Source: an uncultured Acidobacteriota bacterium | Lineage (GTDB): Bacteria > Acidobacteriota > Thermoanaerobaculia > Multivoradales > UBA5704 | NCBI GenBank assembly: GCA_963770895.1 | Contig: CAVYRF010000002.1 | Span: forward strand, 3,264,001 to 3,328,000 | Length of the DNA: 64,000 nt | Direction of reading: 5' to 3' | Shown: in pieces, positions 1-51,167 of the stretch | How the letters are laid out: each line of letters starts with the position of its first letter | Position numbering within the stretch: the stretch's first letter is position 1 | Notes under the pieces: model-generated | The model's input: the letters and a program-made list of their open reading frames with translations, nothing else | What the model was told of the DNA's origin: nothing | The model's database searches: none | Made by a program: the position numbers and the translations under genes

Positions 1-379
1 CCTCCCAGGCATACCCCAGCTGCGGCCGCGCCAGCGCCATCACCATGCAAGCCAGCGCCGCCAGCCGCAGGTAGAACGGCAGGTGCAGGCGCCAAGCGCC
101 GCCCGGCCGCCGCCACCGGCGGCGGCTGCTTGCGGCCGGCGGTTGGGAGGGCCCCGCGGCTTGGGCGGCGACCGGGTTGACAGTCGCCATGTAGGAAGCG
201 GCAGGGCTGGTGGCCGCCGGGCCGGCGGCCACCGCACCGGCGGCGCGGGTGCCGGGCAGCTGGCTGTAGGTCAATGCGCCCAGCGATTGCCGGTGATGGT
301 GATGCCAGGCCAGCAGCGGCAGCGCCAGCAGCGCCATCAGCCACCAGGGATTAGCCAGGTGGGGAAACACCGCCGTCAT
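1..379 (-). CDS. VWA-domain protein, BatA-like (5' part only; continues off window)
   Basis: Hand translation from ATG 379 gives MTAVFPHLANPWWLMALLALPLLAW...ALARPQLGYAWE, a typical BatA N-terminus. It follows the MoxR-DUF58 genes. Confidence 0.8.
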   Translation of the reverse strand, partial: MTAVFPHLANPWWLMALLALPLLAWHHHHRQSLGALTYSQLPGTRAAGAVAAGPAATSPAASYMATVNPVAAQAAGPSQPPAASSRRRWRRPGGAWRLHLPFYLRLAALACMVMALARPQLGYAWE

Positions 380-462
380 CCCGCCGCCTCCCGGCCGCAG
401 GCATGAACGTGAAGCGCAGTCAGGACCAGCGCGATTTCTCCCATTGGTGCCGGCGCAATCAT
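376..462 (-). CDS. putative 28-aa coupled mini-ORF (MIAPAPMGEIALVLTALHVHACGREAAG)
   Basis: ATGA overlaps at both ends. Bounded by a 16-bp direct repeat (376-391, 459-474) containing GGAGG on the - strand. Confidence 0.35.
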   Translation of the reverse strand: MIAPAPMGEIALVLTALHVHACGREAAG

Positions 463-1585
463 CCCGCCGCCTCCAGGGGAGCGGGCGCCGCGGCGGCGGC
501 GCGGTTTTCGGCTTCGATCTGCTCGCCCAGGCGGCGCGCGGCGTCCAGGCGCTCGCGGGAGCGTTCGGGCGCCACCTGCTGGCGGGCGAACTTCACCATG
601 TCGCAGGCGCGCAGCAGCTCTACCAGGGGCCGCACCACCGCGCCGGGCCAGCCGCGCGCCAGCAGCGTGCGCTGGATTTCACTGGTGGTGCTTTCGGGCG
701 CCGGAAAGGCGCAGGCGCGTCCCAGGTAGCGGCGCAGTGCCTGGCTGAGGCCGGTGTGCAGCGCGGCCGGCGAGCCTGCGTCGTCGTGTTCCAGCCGGGT
801 GAGCGCCGCCACCAGCTCGGGCCAGGGGGCCAGCGCGGGCACCGCCACGGTGCCTGCCGCATCCTGGCGCCGCCGGCGCCGCCACAGCATCCACAGGCCC
901 GCGCCCGCCAGGGCGGCCAGCGCCGCCAGGGTGAGGAAGAAGGGCAGCCCCCATGGCAGCGGGCGCAGCGTTGCCGGCGGCCGCAGATGCCGGTCCTTGT
1001 CGCTTGGCGGCAGCACCGACTTGACCGTGATCGCGGCGCCGGCGGGAGTCATCGCCTGCACCGTGCCGCCGGCGAGCGGCACCGCGATCGCCACTGGCGG
1101 CAGCTCCACCTTGCCGGTGCGGAACGCCGCCAACACCAGGCGCTGCGTGTAGGTGATGGCGCCGCCGGCGCCGTCGCGCCGCAGCGGTTCGGCATGCTCG
1201 CGCACCTCCGCTTCGCCCCACGCTTCGCCCCACACCGGAAACCGCGGCTCGCCGGCCAGCCGCGCTCCCGCCGGCACCCGCAACGTGACGATCGCCTCCA
1301 GCCGATCTCCCACTGTCACCGCCGTACCCGGCAGCATTACCGACGCCCGCGGCGTGGGGCCGGCCGGCGTTGCAGCAACCGGCGATGCCGTGGAGGCCGC
1401 CGTTCCCGCAACGGGTATGGGTGCAGCAACCGGTGTAGCCGCAGCCGGCCGCGGACCGGCTGCCAGCGGCGCCGGCAGCACCGGTGCGCCGGCAGTGGGC
1501 GGCGCGCTCGCGGCGACCGCCGGTGTGGCGATCGCGACGGCCGCAAAGGTCGCGACGGCGACGGCAAGGCGCTTTGCGGCGGTGA

Positions 1586-1589
<4 letters not shown>
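459..1589 (-). CDS. membrane-anchored BatD/DUF4381-like protein of the MoxR operon
   Basis: Signal peptide, beta-rich domain, TM helix with RRRRR, and C-terminal LRRYL...STTSE...CDMVKFA. ATG/stop overlaps with neighbours. Confidence 0.7.
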
Positions 1590-3492
<1,903 letters not shown>

Positions 3493-45389: not shown

Positions 45390-46376
45390 GGTCCGACGCC
45401 GACCCGCAGAAGATGCGTCTGGCGGTCGTCGGGCAACCGCCGTAGCCTCGGCTTCGCCGGCGAGAAACCCCAGGACGCCGGTTCCGGGAGGCGCGCGATG
45501 CCGCACGAGCACGAGGTGCGCTCTCACGAGCGCTGGGCGCATCTGCGCTTTGCTGTTGTCGGGCCGCTGCTGGCCTCGCCGCCGGCAGCCGGCGAGCTCC
45601 AGACGGAGCTGTCCCGTCTGGCGTCGAGACTCTGGCAGCATCCGGTCTCCGGTCAGCCGGTGCGCTTTGCCGTCTCGACGATCGAGCGCTGGTACTACCA
45701 GGCCCGACACGGCAACGACCCGGTGGCCGTCTTGCGCCGCAAGATCCGCAGCGACAGCGGCCAGCAGCAGGCCCTCAGCGCTGAGCTCGGAGAGGCGCTG
45801 CGACGCCAGCATGCAGCCCATCCGAGCTGGAGCTACCAGCTGCACCTCGACAATCTGGCCGTCCTGGTCGCCGAGCAGTCGAACTGGGGTCCACTGCCGT
45901 CCTACGCCAGCCTGCGGCGCTACATGGTGGTGCATGGCTGGCTGCGACGCCGGCGAGTGCCGCGTGGCCAGCGCCCGGGAGAGCGCCTGGCCGAAGAGCG
46001 CCGAGAGGCGCGCGAGACGCGCAGCTACGAGGCTGAGTACGTCGGCGGCCTCTGGCATCTGGACTTCCATCACGGATCGCTGAAGATCCTCAATGCGCAG
46101 GGCGAGTGGGTGCAGCCGGTGCTGCTGGCGATCCTCGACGATCGATCGCGACTGCTCTGCCACGCCCAGTGGTATCTGAGCGAAACCGCCGCGAGTCTGG
46201 TGCACGGCCTGGTGCAGGCCTTTCAAAAGCGCGGTCTGCCGCGGGCGCTGCTGACCGACAACGGCGGCCCGATGCTTGCGGCCGAAACCACCCAAGGTCT
46301 ACAACGCCTCGCCGTCGTCCACTCCACCACGCTCTCGTACTCCCCGCATCAGAAAGGCTGCGCTTCATACTGCACC

Positions 46377-48458
46377 TCATCCGTTGGAATCGGTGCGACT
46401 TGCGTGCCGCACCGTGGGCCGCAAGGGCTGCGGCTTGTGTTTGAATTTGATAGGCCGGTCGGCACCTGGAAGCTCAAAAAGGTGCTGGCCCTTGTCGTTG
46501 TATGCATGGGCCTTGAGCAGGCCCGCGCGGCGCCAGAGCTTGATCGTGCAGGGAGTGACGTTGAGCCGCTTGGCGATCTGCGTGATGTCCATCATACCCG
46601 CCGCCCGAAGACGATCGTATCGGCTCCGGAGCTTGTATTCCAAGCGGATTCGATAGACGAATACCGGCTTGAAGTTCTTGCCACTGCCTGACCGGAAAGC
46701 TTGTTGGTTGAGGATGGCTGCGATCTGTTTGTCGGTATGATGGTCGAGCAACCTGTCGATTTCCGCCACCACCTCCTTGCTGGTTTGAGAGATCTCCCAA
46801 ACTCGCAACGCGGGCGGGAGGCCCAGTGTCGTGGTTGCGCCACCGCGGAAGCGAATCTGCGCCGTGATCTGTGTTCCTCTGCTGAGTGTTACATCTTCGA
46901 TGAGAAGCCTGACCATCCGTTTGCGGTCGCGATCCGTCGTCGTTGGCTCGTACCAGAGCTTCGTCAGATCCGTAGCGAGGGCGAGGATGCGCGAGCGTTG
47001 CGCTTCATCGATAACTATTGTCTCGGCTTTCCGCCGTCGCTCATACTCTTCCTGAGCACTGGTGAGCGTCCGCAGCTTCCGGTTCCAGTCAGCCTCGAGT
47101 TCGTCAGCCACCAGACGATTATCGGGATCGACCTGCATGAAACGCCGGCGTGCCAGGTCCGCCTCATAACGAGCGCGCTCGACCTGTCGAGACCATAGCC
47201 GCTCCGCTTCATCGGCGCGCGACTGAAGCTGCTGCTGAACCGTCAGCGTGGCCTCGAGAGCCATCGGCGTCATGGCTTCGACGAGGAGGCGCCCGACCGC
47301 CGCATCGATGTGGGTGCCCGAGATGCTCTGGCATAAGGGTTCGCCGCGCTCGATGCCTTGTCGCTGGCAGGTGTAGACAGTTAGGCGCTTGCCGTAGCTG
47401 TGGTTGTAACGGACCGTCATCCGTTCACCGCAGACACCGCAGATCACCAAACCCTGGAGGAGTGCTGGCCCTTCTCGGGGAGGGCTCTTGCGGCGTTCGC
47501 TGCCTTGGGCTTGCGAGTTCTCGCGCAGGCGTCGCTGGTTTTCCTCGAACTCGTCCCAGGTGATGTAGCCTGGGTGCGAATCGCGGATGAGTGCGGTCCA
47601 CTCCTCCCGCGGCAACCTCTCAAACGTGCCGCTGCGATTCCCATAGTGGCGTTGTCGACTACGGCCAAAGAAGAAGGCTCCGGCAAATCGCGGATTGTGC
47701 AGCACCCAGAGGGCACGGGAATGCTGCAGATCTCCCCAGATCACCTCACCTTTGGCCGGCCCCGTCCGCACGCGGTGAGGAAACCGGAGTCCCTGTGCGC
47801 GGAAGGCCTTCATCGTTCCGGTCGCCGAACCTGTGCGGCGGAAAATCTGGAAGAAGGTGCGGATCGTCTCCTGCACCTGCTTGTCAGGATCGAGAATAAC
47901 GCGCTGTTGAGCGTCGTAACGGAAGCCAATGGGAAGTGGCGACTCAAGCTCGCCGCGGCGCGCCTTGTTGAGGATGCCGCCCCGTAGTCGCGCCCGCAGC
48001 ACGTGCAGCTCCGCCTCGCTCATGGTGCCCTTGAGGCCAAGCAGAAGGCGGTCGTTGAAGTGCGCGGGGTCATAGACGCCATCTTCGTCGAGGATGAGCG
48101 TGTCGCTGAGCGCAGAGATCTCGAGGAGCCGATGCCAGTCGGAGGAGTTCCGCGCCAGCCGCGACACCTCGAGCCCCATCACGATTCCCGCGCGTCCCAT
48201 GCCGACATCGGCGACAAGTCTCTGGAAGCCGTCGCGTCGCTCCGCCGACGCGCCCGACTGCCCCTGGTCGCAGTCAATGATGATGATCTGCTCCTGGGCC
48301 CAACCTAGCGCTACCGCTCGCTGCCTCAGGGCGTACTGGCGATCGGTACTTTCGGTGTTCTCGAAGACCTGTCGCAGCGTGGACTGCCGGATGTAGAGGT
48401 AGGCGTTTCGCTTAAGGTGTCGGGCCGTGACCTTCTGGTGCGCTTCGTTGCCCATCAT
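46377..48458 (-). CDS. large serine recombinase (~693 aa)
   Basis: YIRQST, GLEVSRLARN, LLGLKGTMSEAE, Zn ribbon CGVCG, VDPDNRLVA coiled coil, C-terminal HTH. ATGA-coupled start. Confidence 0.95.
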   Translation of the reverse strand: MMGNEAHQKVTARHLKRNAYLYIRQSTLRQVFENTESTDRQYALRQRAVALGWAQEQIIIIDCDQGQSGASAERRDGFQRLVADVGMGRAGIVMGLEVSRLARNSSDWHRLLEISALSDTLILDEDGVYDPAHFNDRLLLGLKGTMSEAELHVLRARLRGGILNKARRGELESPLPIGFRYDAQQRVILDPDKQVQETIRTFFQIFRRTGSATGTMKAFRAQGLRFPHRVRTGPAKGEVIWGDLQHSRALWVLHNPRFAGAFFFGRSRQRHYGNRSGTFERLPREEWTALIRDSHPGYITWDEFEENQRRLRENSQAQGSERRKSPPREGPALLQGLVICGVCGERMTVRYNHSYGKRLTVYTCQRQGIERGEPLCQSISGTHIDAAVGRLLVEAMTPMALEATLTVQQQLQSRADEAERLWSRQVERARYEADLARRRFMQVDPDNRLVADELEADWNRKLRTLTSAQEEYERRRKAETIVIDEAQRSRILALATDLTKLWYEPTTTDRDRKRMVRLLIEDVTLSRGTQITAQIRFRGGATTTLGLPPALRVWEISQTSKEVVAEIDRLLDHHTDKQIAAILNQQAFRSGSGKNFKPVFVYRIRLEYKLRSRYDRLRAAGMMDITQIAKRLNVTPCTIKLWRRAGLLKAHAYNDKGQHLFELPGADRPIKFKHKPQPLRPTVRHASRTDSNG

Positions 48459-48766
48459 GTCGTCACTCCTCTCGGGGCGTAAGCCGACAGAGCCATTTCG
48501 GCAAGGAGCATGGCCACTTCGACTCGGAAGTCCTGTGGCATGAAAGATGGCTCCGCGGCTGATCGCCGAGCCCCCGCCTCGGACGGCCTGATCAGCGCCG
48601 CGCACCTCTCCATCCAGGCGGCCATGCCACTGCGGATGAACAATCCCCATCCAACCTCACGACTTGACCCGGCAAGACGACCGAGCGCGCTACGCCGGAG
48701 ATCCTCGTAGCCAGCGATCAGGGCATCTTGCGCTCCCGCCATGACAGAGTCGGACACGGAGGTCAC
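48455..48766 (-). CDS. hypothetical protein of the recombinase element
   Basis: YEDLRRSALG...GWGLFIRSGMAAWM. Overlaps both neighbours by 4 bp. Confidence 0.7.
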   Translation of the reverse strand: MTSVSDSVMAGAQDALIAGYEDLRRSALGRLAGSSREVGWGLFIRSGMAAWMERCAALIRPSEAGARRSAAEPSFMPQDFRVEVAMLLAEMALSAYAPRGVTT

Positions 48767-49230
48767 CGTCGTTTTTTTTCCAGCCGACGCAGCGCACGCT
48801 CGATGCTGCGGGGATGAACCTCAACACCGAAGCGTTCCTTGACCAGGGGCACGAGCGCCGCCGCGGTGAGCGAGAGGTCGGCCCCCCGCTGCTCTTCGAT
48901 AAAGGCCATCACGTCCGGGCTGAGCTTATGAGCCTCTCGCGGCCCGCGCCTGCGTGGCAAGAGGCCAGCGAGCCCGCCGTCGGCGAAGGCGTCGCGCGCC
49001 TTGTAGAACGAGGGCCGCGAGAAGCCGAAAGCCTCTGCCGCTTCGGCGACAGGCGCCTCGTCGACCTGCGCACGCCGGATCATCTCGTACTTGACCTGGA
49101 GAAGATCTCTTGGATCGAAGAAGTCCGACCGTGCGAAGAGCTCGTCGGTGACGCGCTCCGGCCGCGGGTTGAGGGTCCGGCGCTCCCGCAAGGCGGCGAG
49201 CTTCGGATCGGAGGGCTTGCGGTCTGGCAT
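48763..49230 (-). CDS. HTH domain protein of the recombinase element
   Basis: FFDPRDLLQVKYEMIRR, AAEAFGFSRPSFY, VHPRSIERAL. Confidence 0.85.
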   Translation of the reverse strand: MPDRKPSDPKLAALRERRTLNPRPERVTDELFARSDFFDPRDLLQVKYEMIRRAQVDEAPVAEAAEAFGFSRPSFYKARDAFADGGLAGLLPRRRGPREAHKLSPDVMAFIEEQRGADLSLTAAALVPLVKERFGVEVHPRSIERALRRLEKKRR

Positions 49231-49250
49231 CAGTGATCTCCAACATGTGT

Positions 49251-49408
49251 AAGAGGAATTATGCCGTCTATCTAGAGCACAGTCAAGCCCCCGCGACGCG
49301 CAACTACGTAATCTACGGAGATTGCTGTGCTTTCTCTGGGCACGCCTATGCGTTTTGAAACCGAGTGCGGCGGCATAGTTCCCTTGACACTAGCGGCATA
49401 ATTTACTT
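49251..49408 (-). promoter_or_regulatory. sigma70 promoter plus three repeated boxes
   Basis: - strand TTGACT(49286-81)-N17-CATAAT(49263-58). AAyTATGCCG motif at 49257-66, with inverted copies at 49371-80 and 49394-403. Confidence 0.7.
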
Positions 49409-49675
49409 TACTCTTGCTTCGTCTTTAAGTTGGGTAATGAGGTTAGCCAGCCGCAGGAGATCCTCCGTCCTGAACCGGCTCTGGCCGGCCGCCATCACCC
49501 GGAATGGGTCCAGCGGCGCAACGTTGGTCCATCCGATGGGCATGTGGTGAAGCCGGCCCTTATCATCGAGGAAGTAGACGCGATCCTCGCCCCACGCCTG
49601 CTTGTACTCCACCAGTTCGAACTCGCAACCAGACAAGGGATGGAACGGGTGTGTCACTCGAACAAGCGGCCGCAC
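49403..49675 (-). CDS. DUF5372/Y4bD-like small protein, lacking its natural start in the integrated state
   Basis: VRVTHPFHPL...WGEDRVYF...PIGWTN...DPF. The frame is open to the element boundary and the GTG at 49675 has no obvious RBS. Confidence 0.75.
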   Translation of the reverse strand: MRPLVRVTHPFHPLSGCEFELVEYKQAWGEDRVYFLDDKGRLHHMPIGWTNVAPLDPFRVMAAGQSRFRTEDLLRLANLITQLKDEARVK

Positions 49676-50306
49676 ATCTGTTGAAGCTGCTGTAGTTGAC
49701 TGCCTTCTCCAACGGCAAGCAAGAGGTGTTCTGGGTGCAGGTCGAAGGCCGGCTGCTGGCCATGCTCGAAGATCAGCCTGACCTGACGCTGGGCCTGCTC
49801 AACGAGGCCACGCTCGCCTGGGTGGAGATGGAGTACCAGCGGACCCGGCACTCCGAGACCGGCCAGGCCCCGCTGACGCGCTGGCTCGATGGCCCCACGG
49901 TGATCCGTCCTTGTCCAGAGACCAACGACCTCCGCTTCGCCTTCACCGCTGCGGCCGAACGCACTCAGCGTCAGAGCGACGGCACCCTCAGCCTCGACGG
50001 CACCCGCTTCGAGGTCCCCGGCCGCTTTCGCCACCTGCGGCGGCTGGCGCTACGGTATGCGAGCTGGGATCTGCGCTCGGTCTGGCTCGTCGACCCACGC
50101 ACCGGCGTCGCTCTCGAGCGGCTCTATCCTCTCGACCGCACCCGAAACTCCGAGGGCGTAAGACGCCCGCTCGCACCGCCGTCGCTACCGACCGCGGAGA
50201 TCACTGCCCAGCCCGGCGGCATCGCGCCGCTGCTGCGCCAGCTCATGGCCGACTACGCCGCCACCGGCCTGCCTCCCGCTTACATCGCCTACGACGAGGA
50301 GCACAC

Positions 50307-51167
50307 ATGATGACCCGCAACCTGCTGGCCCTATTCGGCGTCAAGTGGAATCCGTTCTCACCCGACATTCCGATCGAGGCGCTTTGGCGCACCCCCAAGA
50401 TCGAGCACTTCTGCTGGCGGCTCGAAAACCTGGCGCGCGAGGGCGGCTTCGCCCTGATCACCGGCGATCCCGGAACGGGCAAGTCCGTCGCCCTCCGCGC
50501 TCTCGCCCACCATCTCGCCGCGCTGCCCGACGTCACCATCGGTGTCCTCAGCCGGCCGCAGAGCGCTCTCGGTGACTTCTACCGCGAGATGGGACAGCTC
50601 TTCGGCCTCGCGCTCTCTCCCCACAACCGCTGGGGCGGCTTCAAGATCCTCCGGGAAAGCTGGCTTGCCCACGTCGAAGCCACCCGCTGCCGCCCCGTGC
50701 TGCTCGTCGACGAAGCTCAGGAGATGCCCGCTGCCGTCCTCGCCGAAATCCGCATCCTTGCCGCCACCGAGTTTGATTCGCGCTCGATCCTCACCGTCGT
50801 GCTCTGCGGCGACAGCCGCCTAACGCAACAATTCCGCAGTGATGAGCTGCTGCCCATCGCCAGCCGCATCCGCGCTCGCTTGACGCTCGACTATCTCACT
50901 CCCAAGGAGCTGCTCGATTGGCTCCAGCACGCCCTCGCCCAGGCCGGCAATCCCCAGCTGCTCACCTCCGAGGTCAAGACCACCTTGGCCGAACACGCGG
51001 CCGGCAACCTGCGCGTCCTCACCACCCTGGGCAACGAGCTGCTCGCACTCGCCGCTCACCGACAGCTCGCCCAGATCGATCAAAAACTCTATCTCGAAGT
51101 CTTCGCCTCGCAACCCCGACCCAAACTCAAAGCCCAAACCCCAGGCAGCAAGCACCCTCGCGCCTGA
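50307..51167 (+). CDS. ExeA/TniB-like AAA ATPase (transposition helper)
   Basis: GDPGTGKS, LLVDEAQ, IASRI, AAGNLR. ATGA overlap with the transposase. Confidence 0.9.
   Translation: MMTRNLLALFGVKWNPFSPDIPIEALWRTPKIEHFCWRLENLAREGGFALITGDPGTGKSVALRALAHHLAALPDVTIGVLSRPQSALGDFYREMGQLFGLALSPHNRWGGFKILRESWLAHVEATRCRPVLLVDEAQEMPAAVLAEIRILAATEFDSRSILTVVLCGDSRLTQQFRSDELLPIASRIRARLTLDYLTPKELLDWLQHALAQAGNPQLLTSEVKTTLAEHAAGNLRVLTTLGNELLALAAHRQLAQIDQKLYLEVFASQPRPKLKAQTPGSKHPRA

Follow-up and report, generated by a model that had tools for sequence, protein, structure and literature searches.

Mobile elements need to behave differently when integrated and when free, and the known solutions to this need are junction promoters and attachment sites within integrase or repressor genes. 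A question of this kind is raised by a locus in a 64,000-nt stretch of DNA (the window) from an uncultured Acidobacteriota bacterium (contig CAVYRF010000002.1 of assembly GCA_963770895.1, positions 3,264,001 to 3,328,000 of the forward strand), in which positions 46353..49712 form a compact, 3360-bp large-serine-recombinase element with all four open reading frames (ORFs) on the minus strand. The body of one of these, a DUF5372 gene, lies at one end of the element and a ribosome-binding site (RBS) with a start codon lies at the other, and it may be asked in which state of the element the DUF5372 protein is made and what it does there. The answer that we consider probable is that an operon is cut open by a recombination site, and that DUF5372 is made only from the excised or joined form, binds the recombinase and likely licenses insertion or blocks re-excision.

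A Reading Frame Completed by Joining the Element Ends

The recombinase gene ends on the minus strand with the stop codon TGA 46379..46377, which is followed by GGTGCAGT and then by ATG 46368..46366; a GAGG at 46378..46375 overlaps this stop codon and is separated from the ATG by six bases. When the element ends are joined in silico at one copy of the core, an open frame runs from ATG 46368 into the DUF5372 ORF (49675..49403 as called, minus strand), to which it adds 17 codons, giving 107 amino acids in all, with the crossover between codons 5 and 6 of the junction frame. The core thus lies inside an ORF of the element, i.e., the attachment site is placed within a gene. A preliminary description, made from the letters of the window, had reported the recombinase stop, the GAGG, ATG 46368 and the in-frame join to a DUF5372-like ORF of 107 amino acids, and it was correct to the base. 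The features on which the junction frame depends are as follows:

46355..46380, minus strand: recombinase-side arm of the joined attP-like site, with GAGG and ATG; motif present in 53 elements
46366..46368, minus strand: start codon of the junction-spanning DUF5372 cistron; conserved place, overlapping or abutting the recombinase stop in most elements
46353..46354: left AA crossover dinucleotide (TT on the minus strand), from the shared ends of the copies and the empty-site joint
49711..49712: right AA crossover dinucleotide, from the shared ends of the copies and the empty-site joint
49658..49710, minus strand: DUF5372 leader, consisting of the DUF-side arm and a spacer; open, with the arm motif at 49689-49699 and an in-frame GTG at 49675
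49403..49657, minus strand: DUF5372 domain body, from Val codon 49657..49655 to the stop 49405..49403; PF17342, E 3.7e-24

The assignment to DUF5372 is based on a match of 85 bits (cut-off 25) that covers profile positions 1-77 of 78. The ends of the element are exact, since three copies in its own genome share precisely positions 1-3360 with different flanks, and since a metagenome contig (run X1) carries the empty site, joining 46352 to 49711 with 3358 bases skipped and two letters shared. The three copies, found by a search of the own genome, differ by one base, their flanks are unrelated or diverged, and each begins and ends with AA, in keeping with the 2-bp crossover typical of serine recombinases. 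A 2-bp core is seen in copies, homologues and the empty-site joint, and none of them has a longer target duplication.

Within 120 nt of the junction of the window element, neither strand has a sigma-70-like site with at least 9/12 matching positions, and the nearest promoter-like site is internal. A hybrid promoter formed at the junction was considered and rejected, as no sigma-70-like match was found around the joined ends. The analogy drawn in the preliminary description with the junction promoters of Tn4451 and of IS3/IS21/IS30 circles hence fails in its literal form: the junction supplies no promoter but a start for translation and an unbroken connection to the recombinase operon.

Conservation of the Frame and of the Start Codon

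Whether homologous elements conserve the in-frame join had been proposed as a check, and this check was run here. PF17342 matches were found in 16/401 genomes of the same phylum, from which four further element families were derived, with their ends set by comparison of copies (8, 3 and 2 copies, and a species pair). A scan of one genome per species gave at least 478 loci, 80 of which were examined; these come from Gemmatimonadota, Actinomycetota, Acidobacteriota, Planctomycetota, Chloroflexota, Proteobacteria and others, and the gene order DUF5372, helix-turn-helix (HTH), (ORF3), recombinase recurs in about 60 of them. Together with the window copy and the four families this makes 85 elements, with both arms recognized in 53 (47 distinct ones at <90% junction identity), the left, DUF-side arm only in 28 and neither arm in 4. 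Left arms were placed by a matrix scan. Four loci (L099, L104, L113 and L120) were dropped because their arms were not found, the contig being cut or the copy degenerate, and L069, L088 and L092, in which no right arm is recognizable (decayed or interrupted), are counted only among the 80 left arms. L076 was excluded from the count of internal starts, being out of frame. Three elements with low left-arm matrix scores, B_L042, C_L046 and L087, were retained, as the ends of the former two come from multi-copy comparison and those of L087 from its likeness to L079.

The join is in frame in 52/53 elements (46/47 distinct ones), and the crossover falls between codons 5 and 6 in 52 of the 53, as it does in the window; the core is TT/TT in 52 elements and TG/TG in one. 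Between the start and the domain, stop codons occur in none of the 53 elements in this frame, versus 42/53 and 47/53 in the other two frames. Most elements have 55 nt between the core and the Val codon at which the domain begins; distances of 52, 58, 61 or 67 nt occur in six or more separate clades of the tree, and the single out-of-frame distance, 56 nt, belongs to L076, from a long-read metagenome-assembled genome. Since 52 of 53 homologous elements are in frame, chance can be excluded, and by this comparison of sequences the in-frame join is far beyond what chance would give.

A start codon stands at one fixed place (ATG in 40 elements, GTG in 12, and CAC, then TTG, in one), with GAGG at -10..-7 in 46/53. 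With respect to the recombinase stop, it overlaps as ATGA or GTGA in 19 of the 53 elements, lies 8 nt before in 13 and 11 nt after in 7, the last being the group to which the window copy belongs; judged from these arrangements, the pattern has the look of coupled cistrons.

In L056 (7700-10960), in L061 (same) and in L049 (7200-10920), an insert of about 3.3-3.7 kb that carries three consecutive tyrosine-recombinase ORFs (Phage_integrase in each) interrupts the serine recombinase gene near residue 145. These inserts resemble recombinase-in-trio elements, giving three levels of nesting.

An Open Leader, Often Without a Start Codon of Its Own

In the 80 left arms, the in-frame reading comprises 1441 codons with neither a stop nor an ATG, while the other two frames contain 16 and 86 stops and 60 and 2 ATG codons. 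In 32/80 elements, the stretch that ends with the Val codon and precedes the invariant HPFHP motif holds no in-frame ATG, GTG or TTG; a further 26 have GTG at the Val codon only, and 22 have GTG or TTG at unconserved places. In 22 of the 32 elements that lack an internal start, the flanking open frame has no start either (L107 is counted here although its contig holds no flank). The Val codon itself is found as GTG (38), GTC (18), GTA (9), ATC (8), GTT (4) and ATA (3), and since it varies synonymously, it is not maintained as a start.

Among 23 sister pairs, mismatches at codon positions 1/2/3 number 68/72/86 in the leader and 315/275/682 in the domain. As the leader gives no clear codon-position signal, the case for its translation rests on its openness, on indels that keep the frame and on the lack of other starts. 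The weak signature suggests a leader that is kept open and in frame while its sequence hardly matters, in agreement with its predicted disorder.

Public gene calls for DUF5372 (P0001, P0005 and others) begin at the Val codon, read as Met, or in the host flank, and P0087 begins with a junction-like M-K-R leader. The current annotation of the N-terminus of the DUF5372 family is probably wrong.

Two Arms, One Start Signal

The word at the recombinase-side end consists of GAGG, six bases, ATG or GTG, 11 bases and the TT core, and the DUF-side end of the TT core, a conserved arm motif and a run to the Val codon. Read outward from the core, both arms have GG beside it and CTGCAC at positions 16-21, so that the arms form an imperfect inverted repeat, each with an inner and an outer binding motif. 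GAGG and the start codon are conserved, at about 1.2-1.8 bits, in the recombinase-side arm only, as compared with 0.2-0.6 bits at the mirrored positions, and the first base of the start codon varies between A and G only.

The Joined Form in Natural DNA

A degenerate pattern spanning both arms was used to search metagenome contigs and matched nine, two of which (L141 and L137) carry recombinase, junction and DUF5372 contiguously, in frame from ATG in L141 and from GTG in L137. The remaining seven matches hold neither a recombinase nor a DUF5372 gene and were set aside as chance, as was a single match in a viral contig, which is the same contig as L135. The same pattern had no match in five assembled genomes holding 1 to 11 element copies. 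Circles and tandem copies are not separable in L141 and L137, as both contigs are shorter than an element. The proposal that the junction supplies RBS and start, so that the first ORF of the element is complete only after excision, is strongly supported by the conservation in 53 elements, by the 32/80 without a start of their own and by these two junction contigs.

The element has clearly moved, as identical copies stand at different sites and one genome (G279) holds 11 copies. Support for catalysis of excision and insertion is indirect and consists of these identical copies, the empty site and the junction contigs of homologues.

Predicted Contact of DUF5372 With the Recombinase

The DUF5372 protein is modeled as a small four-strand barrel with a long C-terminal helix (predicted local distance difference test score, pLDDT, 78.7), preceded by the leader, which is predicted to be disordered. 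A fold search with this model gave no PDB match at E <= 0.001, and since the best matches, SH3/KOW-like barrels at 7e-3 to 5e-2, do not reach this threshold, no function can be read from the fold. A model of the complex with the recombinase reached an interface score (ipSAE) of 0.74 in three runs, as compared with 0.00 for the best of three controls, with a contact agreement of at least 77% and a partner pLDDT of at least 76. The ipSAE mark is reached by 58/80 solved complexes and by 2/110 mismatched pairs, a benchmark that is only rough here, as the complex was predicted from our own alignments.

On the recombinase, the predicted interface comprises residues 339-344 (in the Cys stretch of the zinc ribbon), 395-414, 478-519 and 534-542, with 395-414 and 478-519 flanking an untouched stretch that is taken as the coiled-coil arm; on DUF5372, it comprises the invariant HPFHP motif and the helices. 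DUF5372 is thus predicted to bind the recombinase where the coiled coil meets the zinc ribbon. Directionality factors of large serine integrases bind at the junction of DBD2 and the coiled coil and have no common fold (PMC12286644), and because they share none, a new fold for DUF5372 is no objection to such a role. The suggestion that DUF5372 controls directionality gains in silico support from the predicted place of binding.

Proposed Mechanism and Alternative Explanations

The anatomy of the element, its conservation, the empty site and the junction DNA in two metagenomes are direct observations. The mechanism to which they point would be that of a four-cistron operon, encoding HTH protein, ORF3, large serine recombinase and DUF5372, that is opened by the element's own recombination site. 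In the integrated state, an internal promoter would drive the HTH gene, ORF3 and the recombinase gene, with a transcript that runs out of one end, and the body of DUF5372 would lie silent at the other end, without promoter, RBS or conserved start codon. Recombination at the 2-bp core would yield an excised circle and a restored host transposase gene. The GAGG and ATG at the recombinase stop would, in the circle, be fused in frame to the short unstructured leader and the DUF5372 domain; the transcript would cross the junction, and ribosomes finishing the recombinase would restart at the adjoining ATG, so that DUF5372 synthesis would be coupled. The protein would then bind at the exit of the coiled coil from the zinc-ribbon domain and change the pair of sites that the recombinase joins, most likely licensing insertion of the circle or blocking its re-excision, until insertion breaks the gene again and resets the switch. 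It is inferred that transcription passes through the junction, that translation begins at ATG 46368 and that binding occurs, as well as the direction of the effect. Because the integrated form appears built not to make DUF5372, excision should be possible without it, and because excision must work without it, a role at the circle stage is favored. In its most specific form, the proposal makes DUF5372 a directionality factor of reversed polarity, with a recombinase that excises alone and a circle-only cofactor that allows insertion into transposase genes, the two together forming a self-resetting two-state switch; this form is offered tentatively, as a possibility that we would not yet bet on. 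Overall, the structural part of the preliminary description is supported and its functional part is plausible.

Several observations weigh against this account. The window copy has in-frame GTG codons at 49675 and 49657, and 48/80 elements have some in-frame GTG or TTG, at one place or another, so that protein could formally be made in the integrated state. There is almost no third-position excess in the leader, L076 is out of frame and L106 has no ATG or GTG at the fixed place, and the matrix for the right arm includes the start codon, which mildly favors finding one. L141 and L137 could be tandem copies instead of circles, and no circle-junction contig of the window copy occurs in four runs, where assembled contigs cannot show absence. 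Synthesis only after excision is also the reverse of what a classical excision factor needs. Furthermore, the recombinase-side motif doubles in part as a repeat bound by the recombinase, so that its conservation alone is no proof of a start codon. The conserved word thus appears to be partly a recombinase-binding site; binding alone is nevertheless insufficient, as it leaves the missing stops, the frame-keeping indels and the missing internal starts unexplained.

DUF5372 could instead be a classical excision factor with low-level synthesis in the integrated state, begun at internal GTG or TTG codons or at non-canonical starts on read-through transcripts, in which case the junction start would only boost its synthesis after a first excision, and positive feedback would pull out other copies or hold the circle out. 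The predicted binding place is indeed that of the known excision factors, in-frame GTG or TTG codons in the left arm or at the Val codon are available in the 48 elements already mentioned, and the three copies in this genome and 11 in G279 could be targets in trans for a factor made from a circle. However, the 32/80 elements without a canonical start, 22 of them without a start in the flank either, do not fit such an origin, nor do the lack of a conserved place for the internal GTG or TTG codons and the synonymous variation of the Val codon; the 55-nt arm is too short for a promoter, and a circle that does not replicate would be lost if it blocked its own insertion. We therefore regard a classical excision factor as unlikely.

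The in-frame join could also be a by-product of a rigid site, with GAGGTGCAGTATG kept for recombinase binding, the spacing of the arms fixed by the geometry of the site, and DUF5372 translated from within the element in both states. This would agree with the imperfect inverted repeats of the arms, which have CTGCAC at equal distance from the core, with the 55-nt length shared by 63/79 left arms (first tally) and with the slight constraint on the leader at the protein level. Geometry does not explain, however, the absence of in-frame stops (0, versus 53 and 70 in the other frames), the multiple-of-three indels beyond the binding motif in at least six clades, the 32/80 elements without a start of their own or the restriction of the first base of the start to A or G; GAGG and ATG are moreover conserved in one arm only, and the overlap of the recombinase stop with the start as ATGA in 19/53 elements looks like that of coupled cistrons, all of which makes a by-product very improbable. 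Lastly, the relevant joined form could keep the junction ORF intact permanently, as a head-to-tail tandem or a replicating episome would. L141 and L137 show the junction and, being shorter than an element, would fit a tandem as well as a circle, but the junction pattern is absent from the five assembled genomes with 1 to 11 copies, the four element ORFs include no replication gene, and circles are the established product of excision by serine recombinases; a tandem or episome is the least probable of the explanations weighed here.

Other Genes and Signals of the Element

The proposed operon and its internal promoter consist of the following features:

46377..48458, minus strand: large serine recombinase gene, 693 amino acids from ATG 48458, identified by Pfam domains
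48455..48766, minus strand: ORF3, 103 amino acids, no Pfam family; its start overlaps the stop of the HTH gene as GTGA
48763..49230, minus strand: HTH protein gene, 155 amino acids, first cistron; HTH_32, HTH_28 and HTH_29, E ~1e-11
49258..49286, minus strand: promoter-like site TTGACT-17-CATAAT before the HTH gene; 10/12 consensus positions, consensus match only

The recombinase matches Resolvase (PF00239, 1.1e-18), Recombinase (PF07508, 3.6e-13) and Zn_ribbon_recom (PF13408, 1.2e-9), has a MerR-like HTH at its C-terminus (Pfam) and shares invariant catalytic-domain and Cys columns with 39 homologues, i.e., it has the domain make-up of a large serine recombinase. Its start overlaps the stop of ORF3 as ATGA. 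Some of the homologous elements have a conserved ORF3 (27-49% identity), and the position of the HTH gene is kept in homologues. Two promoter-like sites were found, versus 0.4 expected in shuffled sequences, and no terminator-like site was found on the minus strand of the element.

The spacer that separates DUF5372 from the HTH gene (49259-49405) holds repeats of the words GGCATAAT/AATTATGCC, one copy of which overlaps the -10 of the promoter-like site, and the HTH protein may have its operator here. Where ORFs of homologues were called too long, this DNA word gives rise to a V-K-x-x-M-P tail whose conservation is false.

The Interrupted Transposase Gene

The window copy lies within a transposase gene with an rve domain, and the other two copies in its genome lie in two diverged IS21-like (insertion sequence, IS) transposase genes. 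The interrupted gene is found in two parts:

45498..46352, plus strand: 5' part of the host DDE (rve) transposase gene; rve E 5.8e-9, frame continuing over the rejoined flanks
49713..50310, plus strand: 3' part of the host transposase gene, starting just before the catalytic Glu codon; from the empty-site contig

The empty-site contig and the open frames across rejoined flanks support the earlier proposal that excision would repair the host transposase. Downstream of the interrupted gene lies an AAA_22 ATPase ORF (49911-51167, E 7.9e-20), which suggests that the host element is a two-gene transposon of transposase and ATPase.

The family targets DDE transposase genes of many IS families, as seen in the flanks of the window copy and of L053-L132. 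In 40/48 rejoined flanks, the AA core forms the first two bases of a Lys or Asn codon four codons before the catalytic Glu codon, and the flank logo of the insertion sites reads.GG....g..GAg (window 46340-46360 and 49705-49730; L053-L132). The element family is a transposon parasite, which disables transposons in a way that excision can undo. In runs X1-X4, contigs with loose ends leave 46353 and 49712 into IS21-like flanks that are absent from the window, which points to further element sites in related populations.

Relation to Known Systems and Implications

Dependence of expression on a junction has been described at the promoter level. IS circles have junction promoters, and Tn4451 encodes a large serine recombinase with a 2-bp core; for Tn4451 and its recombinase TnpX, junction-dependent expression at the promoter level was reportedly described by Lyras and Rood in 2000. 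In SSV-type archaeal viruses with split integrase genes and in mycobacteriophages with integration-dependent immunity, the attachment site lies inside a gene. Pcir of ICEclc and P3'end of ICEKp1 are further cases of junction-dependent expression at the promoter level (PMC13023037). In Tn4451/Tn4453, IS circles, ICEclc and ICEKp1, a gene needed by the excised form is likewise switched on by joining of the ends; in these systems, however, a promoter is delivered for the recombinase itself, whereas the junction described here would deliver an RBS, a start and five codons for an accessory protein. In the SSV-type integrases and in mycobacteriophage immunity, the crossover likewise falls in coding sequence and the protein differs between the integrated and the free form, but these are tyrosine integrases, and a large part or the C-terminal tail of an integrase or repressor is cut off, whereas here, with a serine recombinase, only the translation start is separated from an otherwise whole cofactor gene.

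Known directionality factors are made by the integrated prophage and set off excision, whereas DUF5372 appears built so that its proper synthesis awaits excision, and it may act with opposite polarity. Nevertheless, SprB of SPbeta, gp47 of Bxb1 and gp3 of phiC31 are likewise small proteins of the same element that sit at the DBD2/coiled-coil junction, a placement that is predicted for DUF5372 (PMC12286644). Multi-targeting large serine recombinases have been reported in discovery screens, and they likewise insert not at one site but at many that share a short motif (10.1101/2021.11.05.467528); the motif of the present family differs in that it is the stretch of DDE transposase coding sequence immediately ahead of the catalytic Glu, which places the element inside other mobile elements. 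A search of one literature collection, made in main texts, found no paper naming DUF5372, and among papers about serine recombinase elements within transposase genes, about ORFs that depend on a junction or about nesting of elements none described this family; supplementary tables, those of recombinase screens in particular, could list such elements. Junction-dependent expression and in-gene attachment sites are thus already known, and what appears new is the junction-supplied translation start of a gene for a recombinase cofactor.

In this family, the state of the element would be sensed at translation initiation of the recombinase cofactor, a design that is kept across at least 47 distinct elements from many phyla. 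If the cofactor sets the direction of recombination, this would explain the one-way steps of a serine-recombinase transposon without host signals, and it would offer a compact, self-limiting pair of integrase and cofactor for genome engineering. Insertion before the catalytic Glu codon makes the element a natural, removable disabler of other transposons, and the reversed-polarity switch, if true, would be used by a widespread family of elements that parasitizes them.

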